Position numbers and translations under genes: made by a program. The notes under the pieces are model-generated. The model ran no database searches. It had not been told where the DNA came from and saw only the letters and a program-made list of their open reading frames with translations. A DNA stretch of 9,537 nt. Origin: a virus (lineage: Duplodnaviria; Heunggongvirae; Uroviricota; Caudoviricetes). Location: the IMG/VR virus record IMGVR_UViG_2740892218_000005; one strand, written 5' to 3'. Shown here piece by piece: positions 7,808 through 8,205 of the stretch (positions are counted from its first letter, which is position 1; the number at the start of each line of letters is the position of its first letter).

Positions 7808-7984
7808 TGTTCATTCCACGGACAAAAACAGAGAAAGGAAACGACAGAGGCCAAAAAGCCCGTTTTCAGCACCTGTCGTTTCCTTTCTTTTCAGGGGGGG
7901 TTTTAAATAAAAACATGACGTTACGGAGAAGAAGAACGGAAACGCCTTAAACCGGAAAATTTTCATAAATAGCGAAAATCCGCG
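7808..7984. promoter_or_regulatory. cosB (terminase small-subunit binding sites R1, R2, R3 with an intervening IHF-site region)
   Basis: Three copies of the gpNu1 R-element core CGTTTCC/GGAAACG in the lambda order and orientation: R1 7831..7848 (agagaaaggaaacgacag), R2 7873..7887 (ctgtcgtttcctttc), R3 7934..7946 (gaacggaaacgcc), with an A/T-rich segment between R2 and R3 where lambda has the I1 IHF site. The whole stretch is almost collinear with lambda nt 13-190 as recalled (one 1-bp indel). Confidence 0.7.
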
Positions 7985-7996
7985 CGCCTTCCGCCC
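7985..7996. other. cosN-homologous 12-mer (terminase nicking site); right half diverges from canonical lambda cosN
   Basis: Located by flanking homology: AAATAGCGAAAA-CCGCG on one side and CGTA-CCTGTC-GATC-CCGGAAAGGACCC on the other match lambda. The 12-mer in phage orientation is GGGCGGAAGGCG versus lambda GGGCGGCGACCT (from memory): first 6 nt identical, 5 of the last 6 differ. Confidence 0.5.
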
Positions 7997-8205
7997 CGTA
8001 GCCTGTCAGATCGCCGGAAAGGACCCACAAAAAATGAGAATAGTTATCATCTGCATGATGACTCATCAGAACGTGTGTGTACGCAATCTAACCACAAGAA
8101 ATGATCAATTATGACGCAGGCATTGCATCAATTGATCCACACCAAATTAACGTAAAAGCAACTTCAGAAAATACAAACAAGCAACACTGAATATGGGGCA
8201 ACATT

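Follow-up and report, generated by a model that had tools for sequence, protein, structure and literature searches.

A lambda-type cos site with a natural right-half variant of cosN

The window analyzed here, a stretch of 9,537 nucleotides, contains a whole lambda-type cos site at positions 8026..7832. It is read on the minus strand, which is the phage orientation, and is followed downstream by the genes for Nu1 and then gpA. Nu1, the terminase small subunit (181 amino acids; 7262..7807, minus strand), matches Pfam family PF07471 from end to end (E = 3.9e-101), and gpA, the terminase large subunit (641 amino acids; 5362..7287, minus strand), carries the ATPase (PF05876) and endonuclease (PF20454) families. 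Both proteins are close to those of lambda, with identity at 179 of 181 positions for Nu1 (A75T, L132I) and at 639 of 641 for gpA (N9D, S21A), which confirms the near-lambda large subunit described in an earlier note on this DNA. Between the lysis region and cos lies a small open reading frame on the opposite strand (MSSKNRTRRTT..., position 8207 onward, plus strand), and the matching gene in a relative of the window is annotated as a DUF3950 protein. An accessory gene next to cos, a reading frame of 104 amino acids at 8512..8826 (minus strand), occupies the place where the relative has a PerC-family regulator.

The elements around the cutting site closely follow lambda. The heptamer GGGTCCT at 8020..8026 (minus strand), which we take to be cosQ, has the sequence of lambda bp -30 to -24 and lies at the same distance from the nick. 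In alignment to lambda, the spacer between cosQ and cosN (7997..8019, minus strand) carries three substitutions (at -5, -12, and -17) and ends in ACG, with the CG at the top-strand nick kept. To the right of cosN, the hexamer CGCGGA (bp 13 to 18; 7979..7984, minus strand) likewise aligns with the CG at the bottom-strand nick kept and with G replaced by A at bp 18. All three R elements of the tripartite cosB are identical to lambda and in lambda register on the minus strand: R3 (lambda bp 50 to 65; 7932..7947; extent after PMC9026076), R2, an inverted R element (AGAAAGGAAACGACAG; 7873..7888), and R1 (CTGTCGTTTCCTTTCT; 7832..7847). cosN and R3 lie as far apart as in lambda, and the region is free of insertions and deletions from bp 1 to about bp 136; bp 134 is also substituted, and one base pair is missing near bp 137. 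In the spacer between R3 and R2 (7889..7931, minus strand), where the literature places the IHF site I1, we find eight substitutions, at bp 70, 71, 73, 78, and 80 and at bp 97, 98, and 102. The last three convert lambda's TACCCTC into a run of seven C residues (7894..7900) with no change in length. This run, to which the earlier note had drawn attention, is thus real, and its description of cosB and of the cosQ-side flank as close to lambda is equally accurate.

The 12 base pairs at the cosN position are another matter. On the minus strand (7996..7985) they read GGGCGGAAGGCG, where lambda has GGGCGGCGACCT, the canonical cohesive end found in lambda, 434, 21, and phi80. The 12-mer is present in a single copy in the window and appeared in none of 200 shuffles. 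It aligns without gaps on lambda bp 1 to 12, the first 12 bases of J02459/NC_001416, and the aligned 12 bases are annotated as "cos site" in the record of DE3, a lambda derivative. In this alignment 5 of the 12 positions differ (bp 7, C to A; bp 8, G to A; bp 9, A to G; bp 10, C to G; bp 12, T to G), and the right half reads AAGGCG instead of CGACCT. Shared with lambda are bp 1 to 6 (GGGCGG) and bp 11, so that G2 and C11 are kept. A multiple alignment of the window's cos with DE3, Stx1 phages, Perceval, and 2B8 is gap-free on either side of the 12-mer. In a megablast search against phage records, lambda's own record aligned to the window only from base 13 on, a first sign that the difference lies within the 12 bases themselves. 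The base-by-base map onto lambda therefore agrees exactly with the earlier description of an identical first half and a second half with five of six bases changed, and the alignment with lambda cos and lambdoid phages leaves the 12-mer truly non-lambda at these five positions. The cosN changes are confined to bp 7 to 12, the flanking base pairs are as in lambda, and both CG dinucleotides beside the nick positions are kept (ACG/GGGCGG...GCG/CGCGG, with slashes at the nicks). Twofold symmetry across the 16-bp cosN core falls from 10 of 16 in lambda to 8 of 16 in the window.

Differences at bp 7 to 12 are common among lambda-like phages, natural variants being N15 and phiD326 (bp 9 and 12) and Gifsy-1 (bp 8, 9, and 11) (PMC4669245). 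Such right-half changes leave cosN efficiently nicked by lambda TerL, and lambda furnished with the N15 cosN yielded 132 pfu per cell, compared with 120 for the wild type (PMC4669245). The same study reports that G2C cuts the yield about tenfold, whereas the symmetric C11G has no phenotype, and that both the CG pairs on either flank and the 7-bp cosQ are conserved, cosQ highly so (PMC4669245). TerS bound at R3 anchors TerL, and bottom-strand nicking is largely insensitive to the local sequence (PMC4669245, PMC9026076); the TerL nuclease is by itself of low sequence specificity and relies on being positioned (PMC9026076). In other words, changes at bp 7 to 12 have no measurable effect on cleavage because cosB-bound TerS anchors TerL for bottom-strand nicking. 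Papers that cite the cosN survey by Vahanian et al. (2017) give the same right-half rule and add a further variant, the mEp213/LLS cosN (GGGCGGCGCGCT). Since right-half variation has already been described, the window's cosN is less surprising than it was first rated. The right-half tests that we found in the literature involved one to three changes, none of them five at once, and the GGGCGGAAGGCG string occurs in no relevant paper among the searchable full texts, a search outside which the survey table of Vahanian et al. (2017) falls.

Comparison with the known systems places the window close to lambda in all but the cohesive end. Lambda (J02459/NC_001416, bp 1 to 200 and right end) has the same cosQ, the same R3, R2, and R1, the same spacings as far as bp 136 or so, and a Nu1 and a gpA that are about 99 to 99.7% identical to those of the window, and differs at cosN bp 7, 8, 9, 10, and 12 and hence in the predicted overhang. 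N15 and phiD326 carry the cosN GGGCGGCGTCCG, with which the N15 record starts. As in the window, their changes lie within bp 7 to 12 and bp 12 is G, and either cosN form is cut equally by the lambda and N15-specific terminases (Feiss et al. 2015). However, they have two changes (bp 9 and 12) and the window has five. In N15, moreover, cosB is simple and TerL shares only about 65% identity with gpA; cosB and the terminase of the window are those of lambda itself. In Gifsy-1 and mEp213/LLS the left half and flanks are likewise conserved and the right half varies, but their right-half hexamers differ from AAGGCG.

The allele of the window is widespread. In a search of 5,426 complete E. coli genomes with 34-mers able to seed on one allele alone, GGGCGGAAGGCG turned up at 166 places in 155 genomes and the canonical cosN at 7,413 places in 4,101. 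A megablast query that included the window's left flank and the bp 18 change recovered only 6 of the 5,426 genomes, an undercount of the allele that arose because the query contained the window's own flank. The 12-mer is also present in 82 IMG/VR contigs, in 31 contigs of gut and food metagenomes, on 23 PLSDB plasmids, and in two phage records, PhiR46_1 and YDC107_1. In a GTDB scan with a 19-nt GC-rich pattern, Escherichia sp. E1V33 was the only relevant genome among the matches listed, the others being chance matches in high-GC genomes.

The surroundings of the allele vary considerably. The variant IMG/VR loci show 29 types of cosQ-cosN spacer, and GGGTCC(T) is kept in nearly all 85 of them. 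At least three cosB contexts accompany the variant cosN in these 85 loci: lambda-type R3 (63 loci); CATGTCGG-like repeats with a TerS about 82% identical to Nu1 (18 loci, in two of which TerL is just 67% identical to gpA); and an AlpA-family gene with a Nu1-family protein and without a large terminase (4 loci). At one of these last loci (L133, 3676-5090; also L140, L188, and L197), the variant cosN lies by an AlpA-family regulator (PF05930) and a Nu1-family protein of 183 amino acids that is 35% identical to Nu1, and no large terminase follows downstream. This arrangement is similar to the cos-rpp layout seen in phage-inducible chromosomal islands of enterobacteria (PMC9026076), and if the loci are indeed such islands, satellites would carry the AAGGCG allele as well. 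Two further features of the window recur elsewhere: the CGCGGA form is common to 5 sampled loci, and the C7 run is found in 7 loci, the 7-mer at lambda bp 97 to 103 existing in more than 12 variants. Among loci of one allele class, the six bases of the right half hardly vary and the neighboring spacers are very polymorphic, as judged from a redundant sample in which kinship was ignored; this near-invariance fits uneasily with the published claim of no selection on bp 7 to 12.

AAGGCG is not the only alternative to the canonical right half. An IMG/VR sample of 120 loci, unbiased as to cosN, gave 112 canonical sites, 9 variant sites (two phage records included), and 3 single-base variants. The notion of two discrete cosN alleles without intermediates was refuted when targeted scans of lambda-flanked cosN in IMG/VR, the counts of which are lower bounds, turned up other right halves. 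CAGCGG (GGGCGGCAGCGG) was found at 20 loci or more and has its own cosB type containing GCGTGTCGG. AGACCT (GGGCGGAGACCT) was found at at least 7 loci, CAGGCG (GGGCGGCAGGCG), one step from AAGGCG, at at least 4, and CAGACG (GGGCGGCAGACG) at at least 3, and there were singletons including AAGGCT, CAACCT, and CGACCG. GGGCGG and the flanking CGs are kept in all of these, and AAGGCG is the most frequent noncanonical right half found. The existence of several further right halves makes the right half of cosN a multiallelic polymorphic site.

Plasmid records hold 16 of the 166 places of the variant in complete E. coli genomes versus 19 of the 7,413 places of the canonical cosN. We observed that AAGGCG is the usual allele of a family of nonmobilizable PLSDB plasmids of about 42 to 50 kb from E. 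coli, Shigella sonnei, E. albertii, and E. fergusonii. Three members that were inspected, NZ_CP101226.1, PV340565.1 (PhiR46_1), and NZ_CP061364.1, are N15-like telomere phages with a protelomerase or telomere resolvase and a CyRepA1 replication protein, and they carry lambda's cosB, Nu1, and gpA, not those of N15. The record of PhiR46_1 (PV340565.1) presents a complete phage genome, names ECOR13 as the host, and has an annotated telL. PhiR46_1 and YDC107_1 (CP025712) have the 12-mer of the window together with a cosB of lambda type and a gpA close to that of lambda. Both, however, are prophages in the form of linear plasmids and encode a telomere resolvase, whereas the closest relative of the window is a lambdoid prophage in a chromosome. 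Further differences from the window are a Nu1 with 12 substitutions relative to lambda, CGCGGG at bp 13 to 18, and CACCCCC where the window has the C7 run. In CP025712.1 (YDC107_1) the large terminase is annotated with 495 amino acids and Nu1 with 155, the intact reading frames having 641 and 181; it seems that start codons farther downstream were chosen in the annotation.

The closest relative of the window among complete genomes, NZ_CP039404.1, is 100% identical over the local flank and 97.1% identical over the whole window. Its prophage adjoins tRNA-Ser/mtfA, has a frameshifted integrase, and carries a block of four tRNA genes (Ile, Lys, Thr, and Gly) downstream of Q (features noted at locus positions 1879-2929 and 15778-16087). 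Given this frameshift, the window prophage could be defective or immobile for reasons unrelated to cos.

Judging from the sequence, we consider it highly probable that the window holds a functional lambda-type cos with a natural cosN allele, which would be cut normally and leave a different overhang. Nu1 would bind the unchanged R3, R2, and R1 and position gpA, and gpA would then nick lambda's two phosphodiester bonds, each beside a conserved CG and 12 bp apart. Virion DNA would in this way receive the 5' overhang GGGCGGAAGGCG in place of GGGCGGCGACCT. Bottom-strand nicking at bp 7 to 12 would be driven by the anchoring of TerS at R3 and not by local sequence, and the five changes may be tolerated because they all fall within bp 7 to 12, the cosB-proximal half. 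That cutting occurs, and that it occurs at the lambda nick positions, is what we infer. The different cohesive end suggested in the earlier note is supported in this sense by the intact nick-placement elements, by the wide distribution of the allele, and by the published tolerance of right-half changes (PMC4669245). The substitutions at bp 18 and in the I1 region, which might have effects of their own, are shared with other loci.

A co-evolved terminase might be envisaged, such that the enzyme of the window cuts only the variant and the lambda enzyme only the canonical site. The window's gpA does carry N9D and S21A relative to lambda, but both changes are missing from three other variant-cosN loci. 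No gpA residue segregated with the cosN allele among gpA sequences from loci of the two classes (6 variant, 35 canonical), nor did any Nu1 residue in 5 variant and 55 canonical Nu1 sequences, and at the 37 variant loci with lambda-type cosB and a full-length alignment, gpA is 98.9 to 100% identical to that of lambda. Published crosses, moreover, revealed no cosN specificity of the lambda and N15 terminases (PMC4669245). Such co-evolution is thus most improbable, and the same near-lambda terminase evidently serves both cosN alleles, as no gpA or Nu1 residue separates the two classes. It is also very unlikely that the site is cut at shifted positions or with another overhang length, which would leave an end other than the aligned 12-mer. 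The TerL nuclease is weakly sequence specific and dependent on positioning (PMC9026076), which leaves room for such a shift, but the cosN-R3 distance that sets the nick is unchanged and both CGs are in place (PMC4669245, PMC9026076).

The earlier note had further allowed that the 12-mer might be a sequencing or assembly artifact at a GC-rich site, the true sequence being GGGCGGCGACCT, or that cos cleavage might be impaired in this prophage. An artifact has nothing in its favor except the GC-rich local context. Hundreds of independent assemblies, produced by different projects on different platforms, contain the same 12-mer within many flanks, the five substitutions involve no change in length, and the C7 run and the change at bp 18 are common haplotypes too. 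We reject an artifact, which would be virtually inconceivable, because the identical 12-mer recurs independently with different flanks. Impaired cleavage, with carriers of the variant right half being packaging-defective relics, could be argued from the change of five of six right-half positions, from the reduced twofold symmetry, from the frameshifted integrase of the nearest relative, and from our finding no termini at the 12-mer, in that none of the phage records, IMG/VR contigs, or metagenome contigs starts there. Yet the allele is kept base for base across hundreds of loci in diverse backgrounds while the adjacent spacers vary freely, and intact terminase and head genes accompany it. It is the usual allele of N15-like plasmid-prophages of about 46 kb in four species, it occurs in the deposited phage isolate PhiR46_1, the viability of which is indicated by a database record that names a propagation host, and right-half changes have had no measurable effect on cleavage (PMC4669245). 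We therefore regard impairment through this allele as quite unlikely, although the individual prophage of the window might conceivably be impaired. Most likely, the cosN of the window is a further natural case of the right-half variation already described and is neither a defect nor a sequencing error.

If the natural allele is cut as we propose, its ends should pair with each other about as well as those of lambda do: the computed self-duplex of the GGGCGGAAGGCG overhang has -18.6 kcal/mol versus -19.0 for lambda, with 10 of 12 GC in each. Pairing between the alleles would be a different matter. A lambda end and an AAGGCG end match over the six base pairs of the left half, with a computed -9.5 kcal/mol versus -19 for lambda, and a chromosome packaged from a canonical to a variant site would cyclize poorly because its ends pair over 6 bp only. 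The overhangs of lambda and N15, computed as a pair, score -15.3, and mixed lambda/N15 ends, which have two mismatches, are reported to cause a fourfold loss of yield (PMC4669245). The incompatibility would make a difference only where a chromosome is packaged from one cos allele to another. Conceivably, AAGGCG could define a second cohesive-end compatibility group that acts as a partial reproductive barrier, but we think this unlikely. If it were true, mixed packaging might arise, for instance, after recombination between co-resident lambda-like elements; N15-like telomere phages inhabit the same cells as chromosomal lambdoid prophages and have virion modules in common with them. Such a barrier could then explain both the constancy of the allele across backgrounds and its prevalence in N15-like telomere phages, although any selective role for end incompatibility is speculation.

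With five changes at once, the site in the window is a natural example of the rule, already published, that bp 7 to 12 of cosN go unread by lambda terminase. Together, the canonical and AAGGCG forms make up a natural allele pair with which the number of overhang mismatches tolerated in cyclization can be gauged. For practical work, terminus prediction or assembly reordering based on GGGCGGCGACCT misses about 2% of the lambda-type cos sites of E. coli, and searches with that string also miss most of the lambda-headed N15-like plasmid-prophages.

The canonical lambda cos, for its part, is present on some unexpected "plasmids" in PLSDB. Six such entries come from Paenibacillus sonchi (48,499 bp), Stenotrophomonas maltophilia (48,499 bp), Salmonella enterica (48,502 bp), Rahnella, Alicyclobacillus, and Bacillus thuringiensis, and the lengths at or near the 48,502 bp of lambda suggest that lambda control DNA has been deposited as plasmids. 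The list of PLSDB entries with a canonical cos also includes E. coli "plasmids" of several hundred kilobases to megabases, several of which resemble chromosome fragments.
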